NCBI GenBank assembly: GCA_021325595.1
Contig: JAJPGX010000005.1
Span: 49,797-81,796, forward strand
Source of the DNA: Nitrososphaerota archaeon
GTDB lineage: Archaea > Thermoproteota > Nitrososphaeria > Nitrososphaerales > Nitrosopumilaceae
DNA length: 32,000 nt
Direction of reading: 5' to 3'
Below the pieces are notes generated by a model. It saw only the letters and a program-made list of their open reading frames with translations, made no database searches and was not told the DNA's origin. Position 1 is the stretch's first letter. Each line of letters opens with the position of its first letter. A program made the translations under genes and the position numbers. Of the stretch, positions 1-30,945 are shown piece by piece.

Positions 1-1262
1 TCTCTTCCACTAACTGTTTTTATCTTAAATTTTCTGTAGCCTGATTTGTGGGGCTTGCCTTTTACAAGGCATGACATGGAACCTACCGCGTAATCCTCTC
101 CATGATTTGAAATGTCAAAACATTCTATTGTAACAGGTGGACTTTGCAGATTTAGTATTTGTTGAAGCTCAAGTATCTCAGGCTCCATTCCTTTTGTTAT
201 TGCAAGTGTAATGTTTTTTAAAATCAATTCTATCATTTCTTTTCTTTTCCCACTCTGTGGTACTGTAATGTTTACCTTAAAGCCAGCCATACGTGAAAGT
301 ACTTCTTCTAAAATGTCTTTTTGATTAGGTATCTCACTTACTATGATGTATTTTGGAATTGGGTTCGTTGAATAATACTGTGACAAAAAGCTTGAAAACG
401 AGTTATCCCCTACCAAGTCAAATGAAAACTTGTTTCTGTCTTTTATTACACCGTGTGTTTGACGAAAACCCATAACATGTGCAGTCTGTTCTTTAATCTT
501 TATTCCAAAATATTCTTCGTCTGTCCCTCTGGGAATCTCCATCTTTTGTTTTACTTGCAAGTTTTGTAGACGATGTAATGTGTCATGGATTTCTTTTGCT
601 TTTTCGTATTCCAAATTGGCCGATGCTTCCCTCATCTGAGATTCAAGTTTTCTTACAAAATCTTCCAGCTTCTGTTTTCCTTTTAGGATTGATTCTAGAT
701 CAGATATGTGCCGTCCGTATCTTGTCTGAGCTTCAACAAACTGGCATGGCGCTTCGCAGTTACCCATGTGGTATTCAAGACAGGCCTCTTTTGGAAGCCT
801 CTTACAGATTCTAATCTTGAATGTCTTGCGCAATAGGCCTATTGAGAGCATTTTTGAGCTTCCATGAGTAAATGGACCATAGATTTTACCGCTACCAAAG
901 AACTGGCCTGTTCTTGTTCTTCTTGCAACCATGAGCCTTGGAAACTTTTCATCAGTGATTCTAAGGTAGGTATACCTTTGCTGATCTTTTAGTTCTATAT
1001 TGTACGGAGGTCTGTAACGCTTTATCATGTTTGATTCAAGTAAATATGCCTCTTCCTCGTTATCTGTTAACACAAATTCGATATCAGCGATTTTTTCAAC
1101 AAGTTTTTGAGTCTTGTAGTTTTGATTTTTCATAAAATATGATCTTATTCTGTTCTTTAGATTCTTGGCCTTTCCAATGTATAGTATTTTCTCAGATGAA
1201 TCTTTCATAATGTATATACCGGGGTGTGACGGAATTGTTACTTTGGATATCTCAAGAGTCAT
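1..1262 (-). CDS. uvrC: Excinuclease ABC subunit C (UvrC), N-terminal ~420 codons; the 3' end runs off the window
   Basis: Absent from the ORF track because it is open at the window edge. My translation of the minus strand from ATG 1262..1260 gives [43 protein letters not shown] (GIY-YIG motif). It continues with CKRLPKEACLEYHMGNCEAPC (UvrC Cys cluster) and a UVR-type helix (LEYEKAKEIHDTLHRLQNL). The start overlaps the uvrA stop by 11 nt. Confidence 0.9.
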   Translation of the reverse strand, partial: MTLEISKVTIPSHPGIYIMKDSSEKILYIGKAKNLKNRIRSYFMKNQNYKTQKLVEKIADIEFVLTDNEEEAYLLESNMIKRYRPPYNIELKDQQRYTYLRITDEKFPRLMVARRTRTGQFFGSGKIYGPFTHGSSKMLSIGLLRKTFKIRICKRLPKEACLEYHMGNCEAPCQFVEAQTRYGRHISDLESILKGKQKLEDFVRKLESQMREASANLEYEKAKEIHDTLHRLQNLQVKQKMEIPRGTDEEYFGIKIKEQTAHVMGFRQTHGVIKDRNKFSFDLVGDNSFSSFLSQYYSTNPIPKYIIVSEIPNQKDILEEVLSRMAGFKVNITVPQSGKRKEMIELILKNITLAITKGMEPEILELQQILNLQSPPVTIECFDISNHGEDYAVGSMSCLVKGKPHKSGYRKFKIKTVSGR

Positions 1263-4071
1263 TTTTCAAAATGCGTTTTAGGTATTGACCTGTGTAGCTT
1301 CTTGGATTTTGAGCAACCTGTTCTGGAGTTCCTGATGCAACAACTGTTCCACCTCCATCTCCCCCCTCTGGGCCCAAATCAATTATCCAGTCTGAATTTT
1401 TGATAACATCCATATTGTGTTCTATTATGATTATTGTATTTCCAAGCTTTACAAGTCTATTTAGAACCTCGAGTAATTTTTTAACATCAGCAAAATGTAA
1501 CCCAGTTGTTGGCTCATCTAATATGTAGACTGTTCTCCCAGTATCTCGCTTTGATAGCTCGGATGCAAGTTTTACACGCTGAGCTTCGCCACCGGATAAT
1601 GTTGTAGCTGGTTGACCTAACTTGATGTATCCTAGACCTACGTCAACTACTGTCTGCAACTTTCTTTGAATTGAAGGAATATTTTTGAAAAATTCTGATG
1701 CTTCTTCTACTGTCATTGAGAGAATATCTGAAATATTTTTGCCCTTGTAATGAACTGCAAGTGTTTCAGAATTGTATCTTTTTCCTTTGCACTCGTCACA
1801 TACTACATAAACATCTGATAAGAACTGCATCTCTATTTTCTTTACTCCGTCGCCTTCACATGCAAAGCATCTGCCATCTGCTACATTAAACGAAAATTGT
1901 CCGGGACTATACCCTCTCTCTTTGGATAGTTCTGTTCCGGCATATAGTTCTCTGATTGGGGTAAAAGCACCAATGTATGTGGCAGGATTTGAACGCGGAG
2001 TTCGACCTATTGGGGACTGATCAATTCCTATTACCTTGTCAATCTCGTCTAATCCTGCTATTGCTTTATGTCTTCCAGGTCTATCTATTGCGCCATAGAT
2101 CTCCTTGGCAAGAGCCTTGTAGAGTATATCATTTACAAGTGTTGATTTGCCAGATCCTGAAACACCTGTTACAGTTATCATCATTCCAAGTGGGAATGTG
2201 ACATCAATATTTTTTAGATTGTTTTCTGCAGCTCCTTTTACAATGATCTCACCTTTTTTCTCATGTTTTCTTTTTTCAAATTTTATTGCGTCATGATTCT
2301 GCAGGTATTGCCCAGTAACTGACCTTTCACTTTTTAAGATGTCATTTATTGTTCCTTCGAATACTATGTCTCCTCCATGTATTCCAGCACCTGGACCCAA
2401 ATCGATTATCCAGTCTGAGCTTCTCATAACTTCCTCATCATGCTCTACTACAAGGATGGTGTTTCCTAGGTCTCTAAGCTTTGTCAAAGTCTTTATCAAT
2501 TTTGCATTGTCTCTTTGGTGCAATCCAATTGTAGGTTCGTCTAAAACGTAAAGTACACCTGTAAGATTTGAGCCAATCTGTGTTGCAAGTCTGATTCTCT
2601 GGGCTTCCCCTCCAGATAGCGTTGAGCTAATGCGATTAAGTGTAAGATAGTTCAGGCCTACATTTCGTAAGAACTCTAGTCTTGAGAGAACTTCTTTTAG
2701 AATTGATTTTGCAATGTATTTTTCAGTTTCGCTAAGCTGGAGATTTTTGAAAAACTCGTAACAAAAATCAACTGATAAATCACATACATCCATAATCGAC
2801 ATTGAATTTATCAAGACAGCAAGTGACTCGTCTTTTAGTCTTCTTCCCTTACATGTATTGCATGGTGTTTCCCGCATGAATTTGCTTAGCTCTTCTAGTT
2901 TTGATTCTGAATCAGTTTCTGCAAAATTTTTTTGAAGGCTTGGTATGACTCCTTGAAAAGTATTGGTATACTCCCACCTTGAATCATTTGACTGGGATTC
3001 GTAAGAAAACTTGACAGCTTCCTGGCTTCCATACAAGATGATTTGAAGTTGTTTAGGAGTCATCTTGTTAATCGGAGTCATTAGATCAAAACCATACTTT
3101 TTTCCAACGTCTCTTAGAGTCTGTCTTCTAAAGGAAGAAAATCTACCTGACCACGGTATAATGGCACCATCTAGTATGGACTTTGTCTTGTCAGGAATTA
3201 GCAAATCAGGCTCAAACTCCATATTTATACCTAATCCATGGCATGTCTTACATGCACCAAAAGGTGAATTGAACGAAAAACCTCTTGGTTCTAACTCGCC
3301 TATTGAGATTCCACAAAAAGGACATGCGTTATTTTGAGAATAAATTTTTTCTTCAGTATCCACAACCATGACATCTCCTTTTCCGGCTTTTAGTGCAGTC
3401 TGAATTGATTCAAAGAGCCTGCTTTTCTCCTCCCAGGACGCTTTTAGTCTATCAACTACAATCTCAATATTGTGCCATTTTTGCTTGTCAAGTGTTGGAA
3501 ATTCGTTTGTAATTTCTATTATTTCCCCATCTACTCTAATCCTGGAGTATCCTTGTTTTTTTATATCTTCAAATAATTTCTCGTAAGTTCCTTTCTTCCT
3601 TCTAACAAGTGATGCTAAAATCAATATTTTTTTTCCTTCTGATTCTTTGAGAATTGATTCACAGATTGATTCTACTGATTGATTGGATATTTTACGTGAA
3701 CATCTGGGGCAATGCGGTGTCCCAATTCTTGCATATAACAATCTGAGATAATCATAAATCTCTGTTATTGTTCCAACTGTGGACCTTGGGTTTTTGCTTG
3801 TAGTTTTTTGTTGGATTGATATTGCCGGTGAAAGTCCTTCGATTGAATCCACATCAGGTTTATTCATCATTTCAAGAAATTGTCTTGCATAAGCAGATAA
3901 TGATTCAACATATCTTCTCTGACCTTCCGCATAAATTGTATCAAAGGCAAGTGTGGATTTTCCAGATCCAGATAGTCCAGTAATTACCACTAGTTTATTT
4001 TTTGGAATATCAACATTGATGTTTTTTAGATTGTGCTCCCTTGCACCACGGATGATTAGTTTATCATTCAT
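1252..4071 (-). CDS. uvrA: Excinuclease ABC subunit A (UvrA)
   Basis: 939 aa. Two ABC modules are present (Walker [10 protein letters not shown] and GVSGSGKST; signature LSGGEAQR twice). Interspersed zinc-finger Cys pairs include CPRC, CPFC..CKTC, CNTC and CDEC. The architecture and length are typical of UvrA. Confidence 0.97.
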
Positions 4072-6004
4072 TTCTTAATTGTCTCTGTATTTTTGCCAAT
4101 TTGTCACGATATTCAATTGCACGCTCAAAATCTAGATCTTCGGCATAGCGTTTCATGCTTGTTTCTATTTCAATTGCCAATGTTTGCAAGTCATGCTTTG
4201 ACATATGCTTTGTCTCATCGAGTACAATTGTCTGTTGAGGTATTGCCTTGATGATAGTAGCTGGCGTGATTCCCATTTTTTTGTTATATTCTATTTGTTT
4301 TGCCCTTCTTCTTTCTGTCTCTGATATGGCAAGTTTCATTGACTGTGTGACTTTATCAGCATACATTATGACAGAGCCGTTTACATTTCTAGCAGCTCTT
4401 CCAAAAGTCTGGATTAAACTGGTGATATTTCTCAAAAAGCCTTCCTTATCTGCATCGAGTATGGCAACGAGAGCAACTTCTGGGATGTCAAGGCCCTCTC
4501 TTAGTAGGTTTATGCCTACTAAGACATCGAACTCGCCCAGTCTTAGTTGCCTGATTATCTCTGTTCTCTGAAGATTTTCAATTTCAGAATGCAGGTATCT
4601 GACCCTTACCTTGTTCTTTGACAGGTACTCTGCCAAATCTTCAGCCATTCTTTTTGTTAATGTGGTAACCAGAACTCGTTGGTTTTTATCTATGTGTTTT
4701 TTGATTTCTATAATCAAGTCATCCATCTGTTTTTCTGTTTTTCGTGTTTCTACAGTTGGGTCCACAAGACCTGTCGGTCTAACTAACTGCTCAACAATTT
4801 GAAAACTTTTCTTTCTTTCATAGTCACCAGGTGTTGCAGATACAAAGATTGTATTTTGTACATATTTTTCAAATTCGTCAAACTTGAGAGGTCTATTATC
4901 AAAGGCACTAGGTAATCTAAACCCGTAATCAATTAGAGATTTTTTTCTTGTATGATCACCATTATACATACCATGTAATTGTGGCAAGGTAACATGTGAC
5001 TCATCAATTACTAACAAAAAGTCATTGCCAAAAAAATCTAAAAGACAAAACGGTGGCTGGCCTGGTTTTCTTCCATCAAAATGTCTTGAATAATTTTCAA
5101 TTCCTGAACAGTATCCTAGCTCCTCTATCATTTCCAAATCATACTTTGTTCTCATCTCAAGTCTTTGTCTTTCAAGCTCTGGCAGCTCTGCAAGTCTTTG
5201 TTTGAGCTCATTTCTAATTGACTGGACTGCGGTCTTTCTTACATCTGATGCAACAAGATAATGCTTTGCAGGAAATATTTTAATTGTTGACACTTGTTTT
5301 TTTTCTTTTAGTGATACGGGGTCACAAATCGAAATTTTTTCTATCTCATCTCCAAAAAGAGAAATTCGAACAATTGAATCAGAATATGCAGGAATGATAT
5401 CTATGGTATCTCCTTTTATTCGAAACCTTCCTGCAACAAGTTCTGTATCATTTCTCTCATATCTTGCATTGACTAACTTTTTTATCAAATTGCCTCTGTC
5501 CATCTCTTTTCCTTTTTCTACTGTGATTGACATTGCTTCCCATTCACTTGGAGACCCAAGGGAATAAATGCATGAGACAGTAGCAACAATTATTGTGGGT
5601 TCTCCTGATAACAACATGGCAGTTGCCTCTAATCTCATCTTTTCAATTTTTTCATTGATGGCAGTGTCTTTTTCTATGTAGGTATCGGTTTGTGGGATAT
5701 AACTTTCTGGTTGGTAATAATCATAATATGAAACAAAATATCCTATGTTGTTGTTTGGAAAGAATTGTTTTAGTTCTGAATAAAGCTGTGCAGCTAGTGT
5801 CTTGTTATGCGATATGATGAGTGTTCTTTTTCCAGTTCTTGCAATAACATTTGCAACAGTAAATGTCTTACCGCTGCCTGTTACTCCAAGCAATGTCTGG
5901 ATTTTTCTCTTTTTTACGCCAGCTACTAGTTGTTCAATTGCTTGTGGCTGATCGCCTGAAGGTTCAAATTCTGACACTATCTGAAAGCTCGGATTTTCTA
6001 GCAA
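4064..6004 (-). CDS. uvrB: Excinuclease ABC subunit B (UvrB)
   Basis: 646 aa. Motifs: N-terminal [11 protein letters not shown], helicase motif [13 protein letters not shown] box (VIDESHVT), and a C-terminal UVR domain ([16 protein letters not shown]). The start is TTG at 6004, with an in-frame stop two codons upstream. The stop overlaps the uvrA ATG in ATGAATGA. Confidence 0.97.
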
Positions 6005-10183: not shown

Positions 10184-11455
10184 GTGTTAATTCGAAACAT
10201 TCAGAAATTACGGACAAGCAAACAGAAAAAAATCGTACTTTCTATTTTGGAATCAGGTCTTAAAGCAGGAATGCCTGACACGGTGTTGAAGAAAATTGTG
10301 TACAAAAACAAGATTGTTGTTGAGAATAAAACTTACAACCTTGATAATTATGAACGCGTATTTGTTGTAGCAGTCGGAAAAGCAGCTTTTTCCATGACTT
10401 GTTCTGTTTGTAAATATGCTAGAATACGTGGAGGAATAATTGTAATTCCAGATAATGTAAAACATCACAAAATTTCAGGATTTAAAATAATCAAAAGCAG
10501 TCATCCAATACCTGATAAAAAAAGTATCAATGCAGCAAACTCGATTATTTCTTTTCTTAGTAAAGTGGATCCACAGGATCTTGTCATTTTTCTTTTCTCA
10601 GGGGGAACATCATCTCTTACAGCCCTTCCCGACTGCATATCTATTAAAGAAAAACAGGTAACAACTAGACTTTTACTAAGATGTGGGGCTACAATAAATG
10701 AGATTAATTGTATTCGAAAACATCTCTCCAAGATCAAAGGTGGAAAACTTGCCAGATATGTAAGGTGTAAAGCGTTATCGCTTATAATGTCAGATGTAAT
10801 AGGAAACGATCTCTCTTCTATTGTTTCAGGTATCACATATGGTGATAACACCACATTTTCTGATGCAAAAAAGATCTTGGAAAAATACCATATTGAAAAT
10901 CTTGTACCAAGTAAAGTCATGCAACATATCGAAGCAGGAATTACAAAAAAACAAAAGAGTACTCATACTAGAAAAATAGAAAATTACATAATTTGTGATA
11001 ATAACGTCTGTCTTGAAGCCATGAATAAGCAAGCAAAAAAACTTGGCCTTTCTACTATCTTGTTAAAGGGTATAACAGGAAACATATCTGATGTTTCCAA
11101 AAGACTAGTACGGATCACAAAAAGAAAACACTGTCTAATTTTTGGTGGCGAGACAACAGTTACAGTAACAGGATCTGGAAAAGGTGGCAGAAATCAAGAG
11201 TTGGCATTACGACTTGTTGAATTACTTGCAAAAAACAAGATCAAGGCTGTAGTTGCATGTATGGGCACTGATGGTGTTGATGGAAACACAGATGCTGCAG
11301 GAGCAATAAGTGAATCTGGTACACCATCAGATAAGATCAGATCATTTTTAGAAAATAATGACTCTTATCACTATTTTAAAAAATATGGAGGTCATATCAT
11401 CACAGGTCCAACACAGACAAATCTTGCTGATATAGGCGTAATTCTAAGAATTTAG
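10184..11455 (+). CDS. Glycerate 2-kinase / hydroxypyruvate reductase family (DUF4147 + MOFRL domains)
   Basis: 423 aa with a GTG start. The N-terminal region has VVAVGKAAFSM. The C-terminal region has FGGETTVTVTGSGKGGRNQELAL and GTDGVDGNTDAAGA, which are characteristic of the TtuD/GckA-type family. Confidence 0.85.
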   Translation: MLIRNIQKLRTSKQKKIVLSILESGLKAGMPDTVLKKIVYKNKIVVENKTYNLDNYERVFVVAVGKAAFSMTCSVCKYARIRGGIIVIPDNVKHHKISGFKIIKSSHPIPDKKSINAANSIISFLSKVDPQDLVIFLFSGGTSSLTALPDCISIKEKQVTTRLLLRCGATINEINCIRKHLSKIKGGKLARYVRCKALSLIMSDVIGNDLSSIVSGITYGDNTTFSDAKKILEKYHIENLVPSKVMQHIEAGITKKQKSTHTRKIENYIICDNNVCLEAMNKQAKKLGLSTILLKGITGNISDVSKRLVRITKRKHCLIFGGETTVTVTGSGKGGRNQELALRLVELLAKNKIKAVVACMGTDGVDGNTDAAGAISESGTPSDKIRSFLENNDSYHYFKKYGGHIITGPTQTNLADIGVILRI

Positions 11456-23334: not shown

Positions 23335-23901
23335 CCACTTGGTTTTTGCATTTCCATAAGATTGTAATCCGCTCATCTCATACTGGAACGACTGTTGTAG
23401 TAACTGATCTGATTTTGTCTGGCTTGAATTGTCTCCAGTCTGTATCCATTCACGTAAATATTTGTCAGATTCGATTTCAGTCTGTGTTGATAGTCTGAAC
23501 AACTGCACTGATGGCACGAATGTCTCCGGTGGTTTTAATTCATCATATCTTGGAAGTATGTTCTGTATGTTTGCAATATGGGCATCTGCGATTTTGAGCA
23601 TCTCGTCTTTACTTAACTGACCATTTTTGTACATGGTAAGTTGCTTGTCAAAACTATCTGTCTCATTTTTAAGATCTGATTGAATAAGTGCCAAATCATC
23701 TCCAAATTTTTGTCCTGATATTTTTGTTTGATCAAGATAATAGCTTACAAGAATAACTATTACTATTATTGCAATGCCTCCTCCTATCGCTATTGGCTTT
23801 GTAGGCAATGGTTTTGTTTGCTTTTTTCGGCGCACGAGAAAAATGGAACCATATCTGAAATAAATCAATCGTCTTGTTATTTGACAATTAACACAGGGCA
23901 C
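23326..23901 (-). CDS. Hypothetical membrane-anchored protein (N-terminal TM helix, helical ectodomain)
   Basis: 191 aa from GTG at 23901. An internal GTG at 23835 would give MRRKKQTKPLPTKPIAIGGGIAIIVIVILV, a more typical positive-inside N-terminus, and would remove the overlap with the upstream UspA gene. Confidence 0.55.
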   Translation of the reverse strand: MPCVNCQITRRLIYFRYGSIFLVRRKKQTKPLPTKPIAIGGGIAIIVIVILVSYYLDQTKISGQKFGDDLALIQSDLKNETDSFDKQLTMYKNGQLSKDEMLKIADAHIANIQNILPRYDELKPPETFVPSVQLFRLSTQTEIESDKYLREWIQTGDNSSQTKSDQLLQQSFQYEMSGLQSYGNAKTKWSQ

Positions 23902-24305
23902 TTGGAATGCTGTGAGACTCCACTTGCAACACTTCCAAGAAGCATCTTCTTGAATCCCCCGAGACCGCGTGAACCCATTACTATAAGGTCTATTCCGTGT
24001 TTTTCGGAATATGATAAAATTACATCAGTAATAGACACAGATTCAAGTACATCTGTCTTGTAGGCGACCCCTGTTTGTTTTAGTTTTGGTTCAAGCTCAG
24101 ACAGCGTATCCCTAATTGCGTCTTTTTGCATTTTCATTGTTTCAACATAGGCAGCAGACATGACCGGGTCAACATGTTGGTATATTAACAAACACGAAAC
24201 GATGCTAATGCTCGCATGGTATAGATTTGCAAGATCAAGTGCAAACTCAAGGGCTCTCTTTGAAGATTCTGAACCATCGTATGGTACGAGGATGTTTTTT
24301 ACCAT
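23877..24305 (-). CDS. Universal stress protein (UspA family)
   Basis: 142 aa. It has N-terminal ILVPYDGSESSKRALEFA and the C-terminal ATP-binding motif LIVMGSRGLGGFKKMLLGSVASGVSQHSKCPVLIV. Confidence 0.85.
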   Translation of the reverse strand: MVKNILVPYDGSESSKRALEFALDLANLYHASISIVSCLLIYQHVDPVMSAAYVETMKMQKDAIRDTLSELEPKLKQTGVAYKTDVLESVSITDVILSYSEKHGIDLIVMGSRGLGGFKKMLLGSVASGVSQHSKCPVLIVK

Positions 24306-24540: not shown

Positions 24541-25419
24541 GTGAATAAATTCAAAGGACTAGTTTTACTTGCAATATTGGTTAGTGCAGCAGGTTCAAGT
24601 CCAATTTTTGCTTCCCCTGCAACTTCTCCTAGTTATACTGGTGTCAATTCAACAACCGGAATGCCGCTTGCACCATCTATTACTGGTGCAATTGCAGTAA
24701 CCACTGATAAACCATCATATAATGATGGAGACAAGATTACCATATCTGGTACTTCAAGAGATTACATTTCAGATACTACAGTTACAGTAATGATCAGAAA
24801 TCCAATAGGGAATATAATCAAGATTGATCAGGTAGAACTTGGAACGGACAAGACATATTCCACCACGGTTACCGCCAGTGGAAGCCTATGGCAGGCAGCT
24901 GGAACTTATCAAGTAATGGTACAGCTTGGCAGTAAAGATAGATCAGCCGAGACATCCTTCCAATTCACAGGGTCAGTTGCAGGAACAGGAGTGGGAAATA
25001 CCATAAAGGTGGATGGTACTGACTTTTCTGTAACTTATAGTATTACTAATGGTAAGGTACTTGGAATAAAAGCAGATACTCTATCAAAGTCATTGATAGT
25101 ATCAATACAGACTACTGGCGATGGAGTGTTAACAATAACGCTTCCACGAGGACTCATTGACGCTAAGGTAAGCGGTACCGATGCCAAATACATAGTATTG
25201 AATGATAATGAAGAATCAGACTTTCAAGAAATTAATACGACTAGAATGGATAGAACTCTCTCTATCCCATTCACCGATGGTACAACTCAAATTGAAATTG
25301 TGGGCACATTTGTAATTCCAGAATTTGGTCCGATCGCGGCTCTAGTATTGGTAGTTGCAATTGCATCTATAATCGCAATATCATCAAGAACCGGACTCAA
25401 ATTTGTTCCAAAATACTAA
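24541..25419 (+). CDS. Secreted surface protein with a PEFG-type C-terminal sorting signal
   Basis: 292 aa with a GTG start. The signal peptide is MNKFKGLVLLAILVSAAGSSPIFA. Beta-rich Ig-like domains contain AGTYQVMVQLG. The C-terminus PEFG-PIAALVLVVAIASIIAISS-RTGLKFVPKY (nt 25318..25416) has the motif, TM helix and basic tail typical of archaeosortase-type signals. Confidence 0.8.
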   Translation: MNKFKGLVLLAILVSAAGSSPIFASPATSPSYTGVNSTTGMPLAPSITGAIAVTTDKPSYNDGDKITISGTSRDYISDTTVTVMIRNPIGNIIKIDQVELGTDKTYSTTVTASGSLWQAAGTYQVMVQLGSKDRSAETSFQFTGSVAGTGVGNTIKVDGTDFSVTYSITNGKVLGIKADTLSKSLIVSIQTTGDGVLTITLPRGLIDAKVSGTDAKYIVLNDNEESDFQEINTTRMDRTLSIPFTDGTTQIEIVGTFVIPEFGPIAALVLVVAIASIIAISSRTGLKFVPKY

Positions 25420-25640: not shown

Positions 25641-26030
25641 CTATGATCGGTAATAATCCAATAACTGGTGCATGCTTTGGTCAAGTGATTTTATTGTTGA
25701 TGTATAGGTATGCACAAACATTCTATGCATGTTTACAAATGAATCAATCTGTGAGAGTGTCATGCTGGTTGTTTTCCAAACCATATCGTCAAATACATGC
25801 AGTATGCTTTTTTCATCATGTAGCTGATTTTCATAAAATCTATGCTCCAGTAGATAACATATTGAAAAATAATCATCAAGCACATGTAGGTACTCCTTGT
25901 ACAAATCAGAATATGCCTGAAAATAATATTGCATATCTGATTCTATCTTTTTTATTGTTCTTGTAGTACTTCTTTTGAATAGTTGTGACGGAATCTTGGC
26001 TGGTTCTTTGGTGTGTTTATTTTTGTTCAA
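25641..26030 (-). CDS. Hypothetical helical protein, third gene of the MscS operon
   Basis: 129 aa with an ATG start 3 nt after the MscS stop. The sequence is rich in Y/F/H/D (QYYFQAYSDLYKEYLHVLDDYF). No family was recognised. Confidence 0.55.
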   Translation of the reverse strand: MNKNKHTKEPAKIPSQLFKRSTTRTIKKIESDMQYYFQAYSDLYKEYLHVLDDYFSICYLLEHRFYENQLHDEKSILHVFDDMVWKTTSMTLSQIDSFVNMHRMFVHTYTSTIKSLDQSMHQLLDYYRS

Positions 26031-26033
26031 TTT

Positions 26034-26885
26034 TTATCCTGCCTGCGGTTTTACCTCTTCAGGCATTCTTCGATACCATATCGTCCTCTGTGGGAAGGGG
26101 ATCTCAATTCCTACTTTGTCTAGGCACTCTTTTATTATTTTTGGAAGAATTGGTACCACTTCGCCAAATGCATCTCCTGGATACCATACGAATACTCTGA
26201 GATTTACACTCGAGTCTCCAAGCTGTTCTGTCCATACCATTGGCTCTGGCTCCACAAGAACGTATGGCAAAGCAGATATTGCTTTTTTGATTTCGGATAT
26301 GACCCTGTCAATATTTTCCTTATATGCAACTCCTACTGCAAAATCAGCTCTTCTCACAGGCGTCTTGGAAAGATTTCTTATATTGGTAGTAAAGATCTTG
26401 TCATTTGGTATTCTCATTATGGTACCATCAAATAGTCTTACTCTAGTGGAAAATATTGCAATGTCAAGTAAGACTCCGACTATGTTACTTGTTGGAATCT
26501 CTATTACATCGCCCGCCTTTGCTGGCTTGTCAAACATTAGAAAAACTCCAGAAACCAGATTAGATACGACTGATTGAGTGGCAAAACCAATCACAATCCC
26601 AAATATTCCTCCTGCAACCATTAAACCACTGAGGTCTATTCCCTGGCTAGTGGTTACAGCAAGAAGTGTCACTATTATGATACCATAATAGATGCTCTTG
26701 CCAATATTCTTAGAAGTGCTCTCCTCAAAATGCGGGCCAAAATATTTCTTAAAGAGTATGCTTGCAACTTTGGCAATTGTGACACCAATTGCCATTATGA
26801 TTACGGCAATTATTAAAGAATCAATTGAGATCTGATGTCCAAGTATGTTTATCTCAGAGCCTGAAATAAAACTAGTCAAATCCAC
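26034..26885 (-). CDS. Small-conductance mechanosensitive channel (MscS family)
   Basis: 283 aa with a GTG start. It has three TM helices and the pore-helix signature GGIFGIVIGFATQSVVSNLVSGVFLMFDKPAKAGDVIEI, followed by a beta-domain. Confidence 0.9.
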   Translation of the reverse strand: MDLTSFISGSEINILGHQISIDSLIIAVIIMAIGVTIAKVASILFKKYFGPHFEESTSKNIGKSIYYGIIIVTLLAVTTSQGIDLSGLMVAGGIFGIVIGFATQSVVSNLVSGVFLMFDKPAKAGDVIEIPTSNIVGVLLDIAIFSTRVRLFDGTIMRIPNDKIFTTNIRNLSKTPVRRADFAVGVAYKENIDRVISEIKKAISALPYVLVEPEPMVWTEQLGDSSVNLRVFVWYPGDAFGEVVPILPKIIKECLDKVGIEIPFPQRTIWYRRMPEEVKPQAG

Positions 26886-27657
26886 TCTCCATTGAAAATT
26901 TGATATCTGTCTTTTCCATTGTTATGGGAGATCTTGTCCACTTCTTAGGGCCTGTATTGTCTTGTTGTACTATCTCAATTACTTGTACCCCTAGTCTTTC
27001 CTTTATTATAATTTCCAAATTGTCATAAACGGATTCAAATTTGTCATAGTATACATCATGATCTCTTATTGGAAAGACAACTTTTCCAATTGATACTCCT
27101 GTATCAAGCTCATTGTTTACAATTATCTTCAACTTTCCATGTACAAATTCTACACTTTTTGGTGCTTTAGCTTCTGGTGTGACATTTGAAAACTTACATA
27201 ATATGCCCTGATCTGGCTGCCCATATAGTGCGTATTTGGAATGATCGACATTGCACGAAAAGACATCAAAATATTCCCTGATCTTACTTCCTGTGAAAAA
27301 CAGTCCTATCTCTATTGGTATTGAGGCAAAGATCTCTGTTTTAGAATTTCTGCTAACAAAAACAGGTTTTGAGAATCTCAAAAACATATAATCCGTCTTG
27401 TATGCTGGAGTGTAGATGGGATGAGTAGGCACAAATTCCATCTCAAGGTCTGAAGTCCGAATTGAAATTAATTTCTCTAGTGTGCCAAAAGGACCTGTTC
27501 TTTTATAATAAAACTTATCGCTACTTGCTCGTTCCAACGATATAAAATTATTTGGTAATTGAAAATTTAATTTGTCTTTGATAACATGTATACCATAATT
27601 TAGTTTTGATAAATTATTTTCAGCTACATGATCAGGAGCTGTTAGGGGAGTACTCAT
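26872..27657 (-). CDS. Hypothetical soluble protein, first gene of the MscS operon
   Basis: 261 aa with an ATG start. Its last 14 nt overlap the MscS start. I could not assign a motif with confidence. Confidence 0.6.
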   Translation of the reverse strand: MSTPLTAPDHVAENNLSKLNYGIHVIKDKLNFQLPNNFISLERASSDKFYYKRTGPFGTLEKLISIRTSDLEMEFVPTHPIYTPAYKTDYMFLRFSKPVFVSRNSKTEIFASIPIEIGLFFTGSKIREYFDVFSCNVDHSKYALYGQPDQGILCKFSNVTPEAKAPKSVEFVHGKLKIIVNNELDTGVSIGKVVFPIRDHDVYYDKFESVYDNLEIIIKERLGVQVIEIVQQDNTGPKKWTRSPITMEKTDIKFSMESGFD

Positions 27658-27909
27658 CGTTTTATTTTGTGATTCGATTATTTATTTTATTTCAAATTGT
27701 TCTATTCACTTTTATTTTTTTAGAAATACTTAACAATGATGAACAAAAATTCTTTACAAAATTTTTGAGTAAGATTTAAAACTAATGACGACCATTTTAT
27801 AAAAAATGAATAACCTGAGGTTACAAAAAAATTCACTTCTTATGTATACTATGATCACAAAAAATGATTCAAAGTTATTTCCAATTCCTTTTACTGATTG
27901 ATATTTTAG

Positions 27910-28632
27910 GTGATATCATTGATAGAGTTAAGAAAAAAGTTTACAATAAGTGTAATAATTCCAGCTCATAATGAAGAAGAACACATCGAAGACGTCATAA
28001 AAACAGTACAGAAAAGAAAAGAAATTGATGAGATAATAGTTGTAAATGACGGTTCAACTGACAAGACAGCTGACGTTGCCAAAAGGTGCAACGTTAAAGT
28101 AATCTCAACTAGTGAAAATTATGGAAAAGGACATGCTATGAAGCTTGGTGCCTCAAAAGCCATCGGTGACATTTTACTTTTCCTTGACGCTGATATAAAA
28201 AATATGGATTCAAAGAAAATCGAGGATCTAATAGACCCATTCAAGGACATGTATGATTTTGTCAAGACTAGATTTGACAGAAACGCAGGACGTGTTACCT
28301 TGCTTACGGCCAAGCCACTTTTGGAACACTTGTTTCCTGAAATTGCACAAAGATTTGAGCAGCCACTTAGTGGTCAAATTGGCATAAAAAAAGAACTTCT
28401 TGATAAGATGAATCTTGAGGATGACTATGGGGTGGATATCGGAATTCTTATTGATGCAGTAGAAATGGGTGCAAAGACAAAGGAGGTTTATTTTGGATAT
28501 CTTGAACATGATGAACGAGCACTTGAAGACCTAGACGTTACAGCGCGACAGGTAACACGAGTGATTTTGGATAAGGCTTCAAAATACAATAGACAAAGCG
28601 ATACCGGTCTGATTCAATCCGAGATTGCATAG
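27910..28632 (+). CDS. Glycosyltransferase of the glucosyl-/mannosyl-3-phosphoglycerate synthase type (GT81-like)
   Basis: 240 aa with a GTG start. The motif series is ISVIIPAHNEEEHIEDVI / IIVVNDGSTDKT / GKGHAMKLG / GDILLFLDADI / GRVTLLTAKPLL / QPLSGQIGIKKELL / DYGVDIGILID / HDERALEDLDVTARQV. It parallels, block by block, the mycobacterial GpgS sequence as I remember it. Confidence 0.75.
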   Translation: MISLIELRKKFTISVIIPAHNEEEHIEDVIKTVQKRKEIDEIIVVNDGSTDKTADVAKRCNVKVISTSENYGKGHAMKLGASKAIGDILLFLDADIKNMDSKKIEDLIDPFKDMYDFVKTRFDRNAGRVTLLTAKPLLEHLFPEIAQRFEQPLSGQIGIKKELLDKMNLEDDYGVDIGILIDAVEMGAKTKEVYFGYLEHDERALEDLDVTARQVTRVILDKASKYNRQSDTGLIQSEIA

Positions 28633-28635
28633 ATT

Positions 28636-30273
28636 ATGTGTTCAATTGCAGGGTTACTTGATAAGAATGGCAATAACGTGGCGTCAACACTTGTGAAGAT
28701 GCTTGAGCAAACCTCACATCGAGGACCTGACGGGTGTGGAATCTGTATAGGAGGGGTTTTAGAAAAGGCAAATGATCCGTGTCACCTTCTTACCGAAAAA
28801 ATAAAAGGAAGATACGGGCTTGGTCATTCTAGACTAAAGATCACCGGAATTGATGGCGTGCAACCTCTAACTGATTGTTTTGACAGATTAATCCTTGGGT
28901 TTAATGGAGAAATCTGGAACTACAAAGAATTGCGAGAACAACTTATTTCTTCTGGACATGTTTTTGAAACAGATTCTGATTCTGAGGTTGTAGTTCATTT
29001 GGTTGAAGAAAACTGTAAGAAAACCGGAGATTTGTGTGAAAGCGTTTTGATAACAAACAAGATGCTTGATGGCGAATTTGCATTTGCAATTTTTGATAAT
29101 ATCTCAAAGAAAATACTACTTACACGAGATCCTGTTGGGATAAAGCAGCTTTATTATGGAAAAAACAAAAACCATATAGCTTTTTGTTCAGAAAAAAAAC
29201 CACTATGGATGATTGGAATACATCCAACACGGGTTTTGCCTGGCGAAATAATTGAAATCAATGTTGATGAAGATTTTACAAATTCTATATCAAAGAAAAA
29301 AATTTCTAACGAACTTGTAAAACCTACTGTAAAGATATTCAATGAAAAAGAGGCGCTGGACAAGTACAAGCAAGCCCTTTTTGATTCTGTTAAGAAAAGA
29401 GTTGCTGGACAAAAAAAGATTGGAATAATATTTTCAGGAGGAATAGACAGCTTGCTTATCACAAGAATTGCACAGATGCTCTCATGTGACATTACGTGTT
29501 ATACTGCTGGGTTTCCTGGCTCTTCTGATATATCGGCAGCAGTCCAGGCATCAAAAGAGCTAGGTTTTGAACTTAAGGTACGTGAGATATCGGAATATGA
29601 TATCATGGTAAACCTAGAGAAAATAATATCCTCTATCGAGTCCTATGATCACCTACAAGTTGACGTTGCAATCCCTATGTTTTTTGCAGTAAAGGAGGCA
29701 CAAAAAGACGCGATTAGAGTAATGTTGACAGGTCAAGGGGCTGACGAATTGTTTGCTGGCTATCCTTGGTATCTAGATATTTTCAAAAACCAAGGTGTAT
29801 CAAAACTCAATCAAAGCTTGTGGAATGATATCAAAAATATCTACAAGGACACGCTTGAAAGGGAAGACAAAATTACTATGTACCACAGCGTGGAGCTTCG
29901 TGTTCCATACTTAGATCCTCATGTCATCCATGTTTCAATGTCTATATCTGAAGATCTCAAGATAAAAAATAACCATGTAAAGTACATCCATAGAAGACTT
30001 GCTGAAGATTTAGGAATATCGCATGATCTTGCATGGCGTAAAAAAGAGGCAGCACAACATGGTTCGAATGTTCATAGCCATCTTCTTAGAGTTGTAGAAA
30101 ATATTAAAAACAATACAAAACTTGTTGCAGCATCAAAAAATCTTACAATGGAACTTCTTGGTAGCGCATATAGGTACAACCATGATGTTTACAAAGAAAA
30201 TGAATCTATCCAACATGTACTTGATAGCATGGGAGAAAAACTAGGCTTGTATCCACATGAAATGCATGATTGA
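28636..30273 (+). CDS. Asparagine synthase (glutamine-hydrolysing)-family amidotransferase
   Basis: 545 aa. It has the Ntn nucleophile Cys2 (MCSIAG), a GFNGEIWNY segment, and the PP-loop FSGGIDS of the ATP-dependent synthetase domain. The start lies 3 nt after the GT stop. Confidence 0.9.
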   Translation: MCSIAGLLDKNGNNVASTLVKMLEQTSHRGPDGCGICIGGVLEKANDPCHLLTEKIKGRYGLGHSRLKITGIDGVQPLTDCFDRLILGFNGEIWNYKELREQLISSGHVFETDSDSEVVVHLVEENCKKTGDLCESVLITNKMLDGEFAFAIFDNISKKILLTRDPVGIKQLYYGKNKNHIAFCSEKKPLWMIGIHPTRVLPGEIIEINVDEDFTNSISKKKISNELVKPTVKIFNEKEALDKYKQALFDSVKKRVAGQKKIGIIFSGGIDSLLITRIAQMLSCDITCYTAGFPGSSDISAAVQASKELGFELKVREISEYDIMVNLEKIISSIESYDHLQVDVAIPMFFAVKEAQKDAIRVMLTGQGADELFAGYPWYLDIFKNQGVSKLNQSLWNDIKNIYKDTLEREDKITMYHSVELRVPYLDPHVIHVSMSISEDLKIKNNHVKYIHRRLAEDLGISHDLAWRKKEAAQHGSNVHSHLLRVVENIKNNTKLVAASKNLTMELLGSAYRYNHDVYKENESIQHVLDSMGEKLGLYPHEMHD

Positions 30274-30285
30274 GTCTTTTAATTT

Positions 30286-30945
30286 ATGGCACGACATAAA
30301 AAATTGATTGCATTTGATATGGATGGTACTCTTTTGGAAGGAAGAATAATTCAAGCTCTTGCAGAAAAGTATGATTTTACTGACAAACTTTACAAAATCC
30401 AGTCCAACCAAAACATGGAAGGATATCAAAAGAGCCAGAAAATTGCATATCTACTAAAAGGGAGACACGCAGACGAAGTTACAAAAATAACAAGTGAGAT
30501 GAAACTAATTAAAAACTGGAGACAAGCAATTTATGAGCTTCAATCTCATGATTATGTTTTAGGAATAATAAGTGATAGTTACAAGTTTGCTTGTGATTAT
30601 CTTGCTGAGAAGATGAACCTTGATTTTGTAATTGCAAATGATCTAAAAGTAGATGAGAATGATTGTTTGACTGGCGATCTTGTCATGCCATTTGGTTGGG
30701 AAAAAATTGGATGCAGTTGTAAAATATCTGTATGTAAGAGATACCATTTGGAAAAAATGGCTAAAAAGTTTGAGATTGATATTCAAGACACAGCAGTAGT
30801 GGGAGACACTGTTTCTGACCTGTGCATGATTAAGCGAGCCGGTACGGGAATTGCAATGATGCCCAAAGATAGAATGCTTGAAGATGTTTCAGACGTGGTG
30901 ATTAAAACCCACGACCTCAACCAGATCCTGCCTTTTGTTCTTTAG
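30286..30945 (+). CDS. HAD-superfamily subfamily IB hydrolase (phosphoserine-phosphatase-like)
   Basis: 219 aa. HAD motif I is IAFDMDGTLL, motif II is GIISDS, and motifs III/IV are K...VVGDTVSD. The cap region contains C143-x-C145-x4-C150-x3-H154. Confidence 0.85.
   Translation: MARHKKLIAFDMDGTLLEGRIIQALAEKYDFTDKLYKIQSNQNMEGYQKSQKIAYLLKGRHADEVTKITSEMKLIKNWRQAIYELQSHDYVLGIISDSYKFACDYLAEKMNLDFVIANDLKVDENDCLTGDLVMPFGWEKIGCSCKISVCKRYHLEKMAKKFEIDIQDTAVVGDTVSDLCMIKRAGTGIAMMPKDRMLEDVSDVVIKTHDLNQILPFVL

Follow-up and report, generated by a model that had tools for sequence, protein, structure and literature searches.

The window analyzed here, a stretch of 32,000 nucleotides of contig JAJPGX010000005.1 (assembly GCA_021325595.1) from a soil ammonia-oxidizing archaeon of the Nitrososphaerota, is identical in sequence to contig JBAIHT010000006.1 of assembly GCA_037025265.1. 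Three forward-strand genes, encoding a GT81-like glycosyltransferase (GT), a glutamine amidotransferase of the AsnB family and a phosphatase of the HAD-IB subfamily, follow one another with gaps of 3 nt and 12 nt, respectively. They face a reverse-strand pair encoding a DUF432 protein and an MscS-type mechanosensitive channel, across a spacer with a GC content of 21% compared to 36.7% for the whole window (Table 1). A sequence-only reading made earlier had described the trio, both gaps and the divergence across an AT-rich spacer of 252 bp, and the open reading frames (ORFs) and the spacer agree with it. Among relatives with a named source, Nitrosotalea spp. come closest, with identities of 59-67% that vary from protein to protein. 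We consider it fairly probable that the trio encodes a pathway that makes a hexosyl-glyceramide in the cytoplasm as a neutral compatible solute, which the facing DUF432-MscS pair would vent.

Table 1. Features of the locus and of the remainder of the window, in positions of the 32,000-nt window.
Feature	Position	Strand	Remarks
GT81-like glycosyltransferase	27910..28632	+	240 aa, GTG start; predicted hexosyl-3-phosphoglycerate synthase
AsnB-family glutamine amidotransferase	28636..30273	+	545 aa; predicted hexosylglycerate amidotransferase
HAD-IB phosphatase	30286..30945	+	219 aa; predicted hexosyl-3-phosphoglycerate phosphatase
Divergent AT-rich spacer	27658..27909	.	252 bp; presumed site of both promoters
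Conserved block in the spacer	27722..27740		candidate shared regulatory site
DUF432 protein	26872..27657	-	261 aa; first gene of divergent pair; Pfam PF04254
MscS-type small-conductance mechanosensitive channel	26034..26885	-	283 aa; likely release valve
129-aa ORF	25641..26030	-	3 nt downstream of MscS; operon membership doubtful
107-aa ORF	25643..25966	+	called in the public record
292-aa protein	24541..25419	+	secreted or membrane-anchored; no family match
Universal stress protein	23877..24305	-	
DUF4147 + MOFRL protein	10184..11455	+	about 17 kb from the operon
UvrA/UvrB	1252..6004	-	

The glycosyltransferase was best matched among NCBIfam models by glucosyl-3-phosphoglycerate synthase (GpgS; PRK13915), with 160.6 bits (profile positions 23-275). 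The second-best family reached 82 bits, AglJ 64 and dolichyl-phosphate hexose transferase 39. Among solved structures, mycobacterial GpgS (1.3e-23 over residues 10-223) and Rubrobacter mannosyl-3-phosphoglycerate synthase (MpgS, 2e-17) were matched, and the structures of dolichol-phosphate mannose synthase (DPMS) and GtrB matched the N-terminal half of the protein only. No hydrophobic transmembrane segment was present in the window enzyme. The scores, the alignment coverage and the lack of transmembrane segments rule out an enzyme of the Dpm1/AglJ type. The sequence-only reading had likewise preferred a glucosyl- or mannosyl-3-phosphoglycerate synthase pattern to that of a dolichol-phosphate enzyme, and the motifs that it quoted were located as AGRVTLLTAKPLL, QPLSGQ, YGVDIGILID and HDERALEDLDVTARQV. 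Judged from its sequence, the protein is a compact, soluble, GT81-like enzyme but not a strict GpgS equivalog.

Functional residues have been named for GpgS of Mycobacterium tuberculosis (PMC2581804) and were placed in the window enzyme, where K114 corresponds to K73, D134/D136 to D93/D95 and His258 to H200. The site for the carboxylate of 3-phosphoglycerate (3-PGA), made up of Val186's backbone nitrogen and the side chain of Thr187, corresponds to V129/T130. K73 and D93-A-D95 were invariant among 27 homologues; G127-R128-V129-T130 was likewise invariant among the homologues, and P152-L-S-G, D176 and H200 were also kept. The donor loop PLSGE reads PLSGQ in the window enzyme, with Ser kept and Glu212 replaced by Gln. 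By the reasoning of PMC2581804, this Ser, found in glucose-specific GpgS, speaks for glucose, but D176 stands at the position of E232 and is Asp as in the mannose enzyme MgS, so that the donor could carry either sugar.

The third gene had been read as a HAD-IB phosphatase, and it scored 73.4 against the subfamily model TIGR01488 (cut-off 45). Its score against the SerB model TIGR00338 was 107.9, below the cut-off of 144, and its best structure match was the phosphoserine phosphatase (PSP) of Methanocaldococcus jannaschii. The catalytic motifs (DMDGT, ISDS, K and GDTVSD) were intact. Two residues of the M. jannaschii enzyme, Glu20 and Arg56, which we take to bind phosphoserine by its amino and carboxylate groups, are replaced by Arg and Ile, respectively, in the window protein and throughout the subfamily that is linked to the GT or to mannosyl-3-phosphoglycerate synthase of family GT55 (MPGS). 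The subfamily shares a Cys-rich insertion in the cap, GCxCxxSVCKRYHL (residues ~150-165 of the window protein, GCSCKISVCKRYHL), that is absent from M. jannaschii PSP; the GT-fused relatives and those linked to MPGS keep it at least as C..C..CK, and it may bind a metal or contribute to specificity. The match to Hydrolase_3 was limited to residues 148-210, and the cap architecture of HAD-IIB enzymes of the MpgP/GpgP type was lacking.

Relatives of the phosphatase were sought exhaustively among 1.84 billion representatives, and the best 150 were inspected. In 23 of these 150 an N-terminal domain was 42-50% identical to the window GT, and 17 of the 23 were full-length. Counted as independent protein clusters, bacterial and archaeal, the GT-HAD fusion occurs at least 17 times. 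Fusion proteins of 430-469 aa were also seen in Acidobacteriota, Chitinophagaceae, Chitinimonas, Planctomycetota and a metagenome-assembled genome of Methanosarcinales, and their domains were 43-48% (GT) and 24-40% (HAD) identical to the window proteins. Fusions came to light in a profile search of genome contigs with the GT alignment, which followed a generic GT2 pattern; no Thaumarchaeota were among the matches listed in that search. Since homologues of the two enzymes are fused in one protein, the HAD protein is predicted to be the cognate phosphatase of the GT and not a housekeeping SerB, a reading ruled out by its score, its specificity residues and the fusions.

In two Acidobacteriota loci (L039:9998-16058 and L041; locus numbers are our own), the fusion gene is followed by genes for a DUF389 membrane protein, MscS and a CitMHS transporter with TrkA_C domains. 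Here the GT-HAD module is found with a mechanosensitive channel a second time, and independently.

The middle gene of the trio retains the glutaminase and PP-loop residues of its family (MCSIAG with Cys2, HSRL, NGEIWN and FSGGIDS), and the Cys2 Ntn nucleophile and the PP-loop had both been recognized in the sequence-only reading. Against the model for AsnO (TIGR03104), the amidotransferase of the osmolyte N-acetylglutaminylglutamine amide (NAGGN), the protein scored 172.3 bits, below the cut-off of 570, and it is not a member of that family. When it was aligned with E. coli AsnB and human asparagine synthetase (ASNS), Gln367 was found in place of E. coli Glu348 and human Glu364, the TT(V/I)R motif of asparagine synthetases read LQVD, YDCARANK read KDTLEREDK and KEQFSDG read KEAAQHG. 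In human ASNS, Glu364 and Asp367 hold the aspartyl moiety, the E364Q, E364A and D367A enzymes are inactive, and T336I nearly abolishes activity (PMC6748925).

The distribution of these signatures was surveyed in about 110 AsnB-family sequences, which included a quasi-random sample from a profile search of metagenome contigs. TT(V/I)R with the Glu was present in 46 sequences, and xQV(D/E) with GQGADE was present in 28, which formed an exclusive clade in a neighbor-joining tree. Mean identity was 52% inside this clade and 28% to the canonical enzymes. A metagenome search with the clade alignment followed the generic ADELFGGY pattern, and the clade members among the matches listed were those of L094, L095 and L102. 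Set against bona fide asparagine synthetases, the window protein therefore falls in a clade apart, without TT(V/I)R and with Gln at Glu348, and it looks unlike an asparagine synthetase of the housekeeping kind.

Members of this clade adjoin a GT81-like gene or an MPGS gene in 9 of the 12 distinct loci examined. In the subclade to which the window protein belongs, the GT81-like gene was always next door in the loci examined. The order GT-AsnB-HAD with DUF432-MscS opposite was found in L001/L002, L003/L004 and L005/L006, so that the trio is conserved in three genomes, and L090 has the order GT-HAD-AsnB. On one more contig, that of P0056 (JGI 3300042731), genes for an OpuA-type ABC transporter and for a second AsnB-like protein of 506 aa accompany the GT gene, the AsnB-clade gene and a gene of the HAD-IIB type (S6PP/Hydrolase_3); an SSF symporter is encoded there as well. 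Here the HAD-IB gene is replaced by a non-orthologous HAD-IIB gene, which fits the same function supplied by a different family.

The MscS-DUF432 pair facing GT-AsnB-HAD recurs at GT identities of 72% and 59% with different outer flanks, and because synteny is kept while the flanks change, the arrangement is more than chance. This bears on the possibility that housekeeping asnB and serB genes have merely come to lie beside an unrelated glycosyltransferase. Automated names ('asparagine synthase', and 'glycosyltransferase' for the GT) agree with such a juxtaposition, as do the best family and structure matches of the HAD protein, which are SerB and PSP. It is contradicted by the fusions, by the conserved synteny, by the loss of specificity residues in both enzymes and by the sub-threshold SerB score, and we find it scarcely credible.

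A sister subclade of the amidotransferase, 40-46% identical to the window protein, accompanies the other synthase. In Archaeoglobus veneficus (L091) the AsnB-clade gene diverges from MPGS (PF09488), and genes for ManC and an isochorismatase-family protein lie close by. On metagenome contig L093 the clade member is divergent from MPGS-MpgP-ManC, whose MPGS and ManC are 77-80% identical to those of A. veneficus; MpgP was seen in L093 and not in L091. A third arrangement, in metagenome contig L094, has MPGS followed by the AsnB-clade gene in the same direction. The Nitrososphaerales-like metagenome contig L102 carries MPGS, HAD-IB and the AsnB-clade gene in that order. Its MPGS, of family GT55, scored 542 bits against TIGR02460 (cut-off 351), and its HAD-IB protein is 46.5% identical to that of the window. 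In Nitrososphaerales locus L092, the genes for an isochorismatase, the AsnB-clade protein, DUF432 and MscS are found.

Two unrelated families of glycosyl-3-phosphoglycerate synthase, GT81-like and MPGS, thus fill the same slot. Because this slot lies beside an orthologous phosphatase and an orthologous amidotransferase, the GT would be expected to make a hexosyl-3-phosphoglycerate, the HAD protein to dephosphorylate it and the AsnB-like protein to act on the product. The synthase swap appears to us the strongest argument for the roles of all three enzymes.

Three distant loci (L091:5957-6613, L092:1-646 and L095:14166-14801) have a gene for an isochorismatase-family amidohydrolase close to that of the AsnB-clade protein. 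The copies are 50-55% identical to one another, and their best NCBIfam matches are RutB-like and BiuH-like. This enzyme could be an amidase, a candidate for returning the glyceramide to glycerate.

On the other side of the spacer, the 261-aa protein matched DUF432 with 103.6 bits. In L003 and L005 the DUF432 gene again faces the trio together with MscS, and in L092 it lies between the AsnB-clade gene and MscS. Its AlphaFold 2 model is all-beta (mean predicted local distance difference test score, pLDDT, 75.6), and no fold match to this model was found in the PDB. The channel protein matched the first, second and third MS_channel domains of Pfam (PF21088, PF00924 and PF21082), contained hydrophobic transmembrane segments and scored 145.9 bits (1.4e-42) against an NCBIfam MscS subfamily, below the cut-off of 321. 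The start of its gene and the end of the DUF432 gene share a 14-nt overlap. The sequence-only reading had placed a third gene, the 129-aa ORF, in this operon. The DUF432-MscS pair stands and is kept in the relatives; membership of the 129-aa ORF is doubtful because the ORF is not conserved (it had no family match and no counterpart in L003 or L005) and because at its position the ORF called in the public record has 107 aa and runs on the opposite strand. The corresponding spacers of L003 and L005 otherwise align poorly, yet both retain the block GAAAnACTTAACAATGAT (= GAAATACTTAACAATGATG) of the window spacer, a candidate for a shared regulatory site.

From these observations the following pathway is proposed. 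In the first step, the GT81-like enzyme would transfer a hexose from a nucleoside diphosphate sugar to the 2-OH of 3-PGA, a role suggested by homology, by the conserved acceptor-carboxylate and catalytic residues and by the presence of MPGS in its place in related loci. In the second, the HAD-IB phosphatase would remove the 3-phosphate of the hexosyl-3-phosphoglycerate, as the gene fusions and the presence of an orthologue beside MPGS suggest. In the third, the AsnB-like enzyme would hydrolyze glutamine at Cys2, adenylate the glycerate carboxylate at the PP-loop site and form the primary amide; this role is proposed because the catalytic machinery is retained, the aspartate-specific residues are lost and the gene neighborhood extends across the clade. 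Dephosphorylation and amidation could occur in either order, but the invariant carboxylate-binding RVT motif of the GT suggests that glycosylation precedes amidation. The DUF432-MscS pair most likely vents the solute on osmotic downshock, since MscS recurs near loci of the clade and of the module, where DUF432 and OpuA-type and other solute transporters are also recurrent neighbors.

The amidated glycosyl-glycerate pathway put forward in the sequence-only reading thus gains support from the fusions, the displacement of MPGS and the exclusive AsnB clade, as an inference from sequence and context. In the MPGS-linked loci, on metagenome contigs related to ammonia-oxidizing archaea and in Archaeoglobi, the same AsnB clade occurs with MPGS and mannosylglyceramide would be the predicted product; in the lineage of the window, the compact GT81-like enzyme would have displaced MPGS. 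A broader proposal, plausible but held only tentatively, is that there is a dedicated archaeal clade of AsnB-family glycosylglycerate amidotransferases, that soil ammonia oxidizers (Nitrososphaerales) and Archaeoglobi make mannosylglyceramide, and that the Nitrosotalea-related lineage swapped MPGS for a GT81-like enzyme with a PSP-derived phosphatase and might make glucosylglyceramide.

Several points weigh against an amidated hexosyl-glycerate as the product. The score of the GT falls short of the PRK13915 equivalog cut-off of 262, and its beta6-alpha6 loop is about 14 residues shorter than that of actinobacterial GpgS, a loop proposed to contact the phosphate of 3-PGA in M. tuberculosis (PMC2581804). 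Its closest non-thaumarchaeal relatives, from Methanobacteria, are membrane-anchored and have no AsnB or HAD neighbor. The AsnB-like protein scored 350 against the 'asparagine synthase' model TIGR01536, above its cut-off of 267. For three clade members no synthase gene was present in the available DNA: L095, L174-L177 and L092, whose contig stops immediately upstream. In the literature no report of mannosylglyceramide was found outside Rhodothermus marinus.

The shortened acceptor-side loop and the low GpgS score, along with HDERAL in the GT where GpgS has HRNRPL and a phosphatase of the PSP rather than the MpgP type, would fit an acceptor that is a phosphorylated compound other than 3-PGA, for example another phospho-hydroxy acid, and hence a different final amide. 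We judge this to be very unlikely, as the carboxylate-binding RVT motif is invariant and the slot beside orthologous HAD and AsnB-like genes is filled in L102 by a true MPGS, an enzyme that uses 3-PGA.

It is also conceivable that the GT and the phosphatase make an ordinary anionic glycosylglycerate, and that the AsnB-like protein is merely co-regulated and does something else, for example amidating another carboxylate or making asparagine at an atypical active site. The GT-HAD fusion module does stand alone in many bacteria without an AsnB neighbor, the AsnB-like protein passes TIGR01536 and some members of its clade have no synthase gene nearby. Yet the clade is found beside both GT81-like and GT55 synthases in Nitrosotalea-like genomes, Nitrososphaerales-like contigs and Archaeoglobi, in several gene orders, and the protein lacks both TT(V/I)R and the Glu whose change to Gln inactivates the human enzyme. 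We regard this alternative as unlikely and prefer amidation of the hexosyl-glycerate.

Relatives of the GT outside this lineage raise a further alternative, namely that the product is a primer or building block of a larger glycoconjugate, like the glucosylglycerate of mycobacterial methylglucose lipopolysaccharide. Mycobacterial GpgS serves polysaccharide synthesis, and the methanobacterial homologues (45-53% identical) had N- and C-terminal transmembrane helices in the three examined (P0070, P0076 and P0077). In Mesorhizobium (L009:7001-11181), a homologue with 47% identity heads an operon with genes for an EamA transporter, an alpha/beta-hydrolase, a His_Phos_1 phosphatase and an Epimerase_2-like protein, and the grouping with esterase-like and epimerase-like genes would suit such a role. 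The conserved block at the window locus, however, contains no further glycosyl-, acyl- or methyltransferase, its recurrent neighbors are MscS, an OpuA-type transporter, SSF and a TrkA_C-containing transporter, and MPGS, which takes the place of the GT in related loci, comes from a family named for osmolyte synthesis. A role as a building block is accordingly rated highly unlikely, and a compatible solute remains the preferred product. The His_Phos_1 phosphatase of the Mesorhizobium operon belongs to the family of mycobacterial GpgP. At the methanobacterial GT loci L007:7001-7984 and L008:7001-8077, the neighbors include genes for UbiD and a PurE-like (AIRC) protein. Across L007-L036 the GT had neither an AsnB nor a HAD homologue beside it; one weak, distant AsnB-like match was seen in L018.

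Elsewhere in the window, upstream of the locus, lie genes for UvrA and UvrB, a universal stress protein and a 292-aa protein; none of them adjoins the cluster in the relatives examined. The best NCBIfam matches of the DUF4147 and MOFRL protein are archaeal glycerate 2-kinases, all below their cut-offs, and this protein may have a part in glycerate recycling.

Sugar-glycerate solutes are a classic topic of stress biology. What is new in the proposed pathway is the extension of the two-step sugar-glycerate route by an AsnB-family amidation, with a non-orthologous synthase and a non-orthologous phosphatase. If the proposal is correct, it provides the first candidate gene for the amidation step of a type of solute known since 1999, and an enzyme family recognizable by its xQV(D/E) and GQGADE signatures, from which glyceramide solutes could be predicted in genomes. 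Glucosylglyceramide in this lineage would be a solute never reported, and the picture of osmoadaptation in ammonia-oxidizing archaea, which are central to soil nitrification, would change. The analysis also offers a functional lead for a large set of archaeal 'asparagine synthase' annotations and for a HAD-IB subfamily currently named SerB-like, and a context clue for DUF432.

The proposed pathway can be compared with several known systems. Like the GpgS-GpgP and MpgS-MpgP pathways, it would employ a retaining GT-A enzyme acting on a nucleoside diphosphate hexose and 3-PGA, followed by a dedicated phosphatase, and the window GT has the DxD, Lys and RVT motifs in common with GT81 GpgS, along with the His and the PLSG part of the donor loop, in which Gln follows in place of Glu. 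It differs in that the GT, of a compact 240-aa subfamily, does not reach the equivalog cut-off of GpgS, in that the phosphatase is of the HAD-IB type rather than the HAD-IIB type of MpgP/GpgP or the histidine-phosphatase type of mycobacteria, and in the third, amidating enzyme of the operon. The GT81-like/HAD-IB fusions are analogous to the MPGS/MPGP fusions (NCBIfam PRK14502), in which synthase and phosphatase are also joined in one polypeptide, but the latter combine GT55 with HAD-IIB, and in the window the genes are separate with the AsnB-like gene between them.

The amidotransferase resembles AsnB and human ASNS in domain architecture, Cys nucleophile, ammonia-transfer design and the adenylation chemistry of the PP-loop, whereas its identity to them is only about 28%, TT(V/I)R and Glu348/Glu364 are replaced and its clade is exclusive. 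In the AsnO-Ngg pathway, an AsnB-family glutamine amidotransferase neutralizes the carboxylate of the osmolyte NAGGN by amidation. The window protein matches the AsnO model weakly and would likewise amidate the carboxylate of an osmolyte, but its substrate would be a sugar-glycerate rather than a dipeptide and its partner enzymes differ. The ectABCD-mscS operon of Nitrosopumilus maritimus couples solute synthesis to an MscS-type channel. There, as in the window, genes for solute synthesis are physically coupled to an MscS channel in an ammonia-oxidizing archaeon; the solute is a different one, and the window channel lies with DUF432 in a divergent operon and is not co-transcribed.

Mannosylglyceramide accumulates alongside mannosylglycerate in R. 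marinus under salt stress (PMC1224877). A product of this type would be expected from those members of the AsnB clade that are linked to MPGS, but mannosylglyceramide is a bacterial solute. No other natural glycosyl-glyceramide solute was found described, and the literature searched named no gene for the amidation in R. marinus and made no mention of glucosylglyceramide. A metabolic reconstruction of R. marinus from 2024 lists two asnB genes with no link to glyceramide (PMC11730185). Searches on GpgS in Nitrosotalea, on mannosylglycerate with Archaeoglobus veneficus and on DUF432 returned nothing relevant. Genome papers on ammonia-oxidizing archaea have placed MPGS in group I.1b only, and the ancestor shared by Nitrosotaleales and Nitrosopumilales was inferred to have lost the mannosylglycerate pathway (PMC4084955, PMC7554672; ancestral reconstructions in PMC7554672). 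The window suggests instead that MPGS was displaced by a GT81-like enzyme rather than that the pathway was lost.

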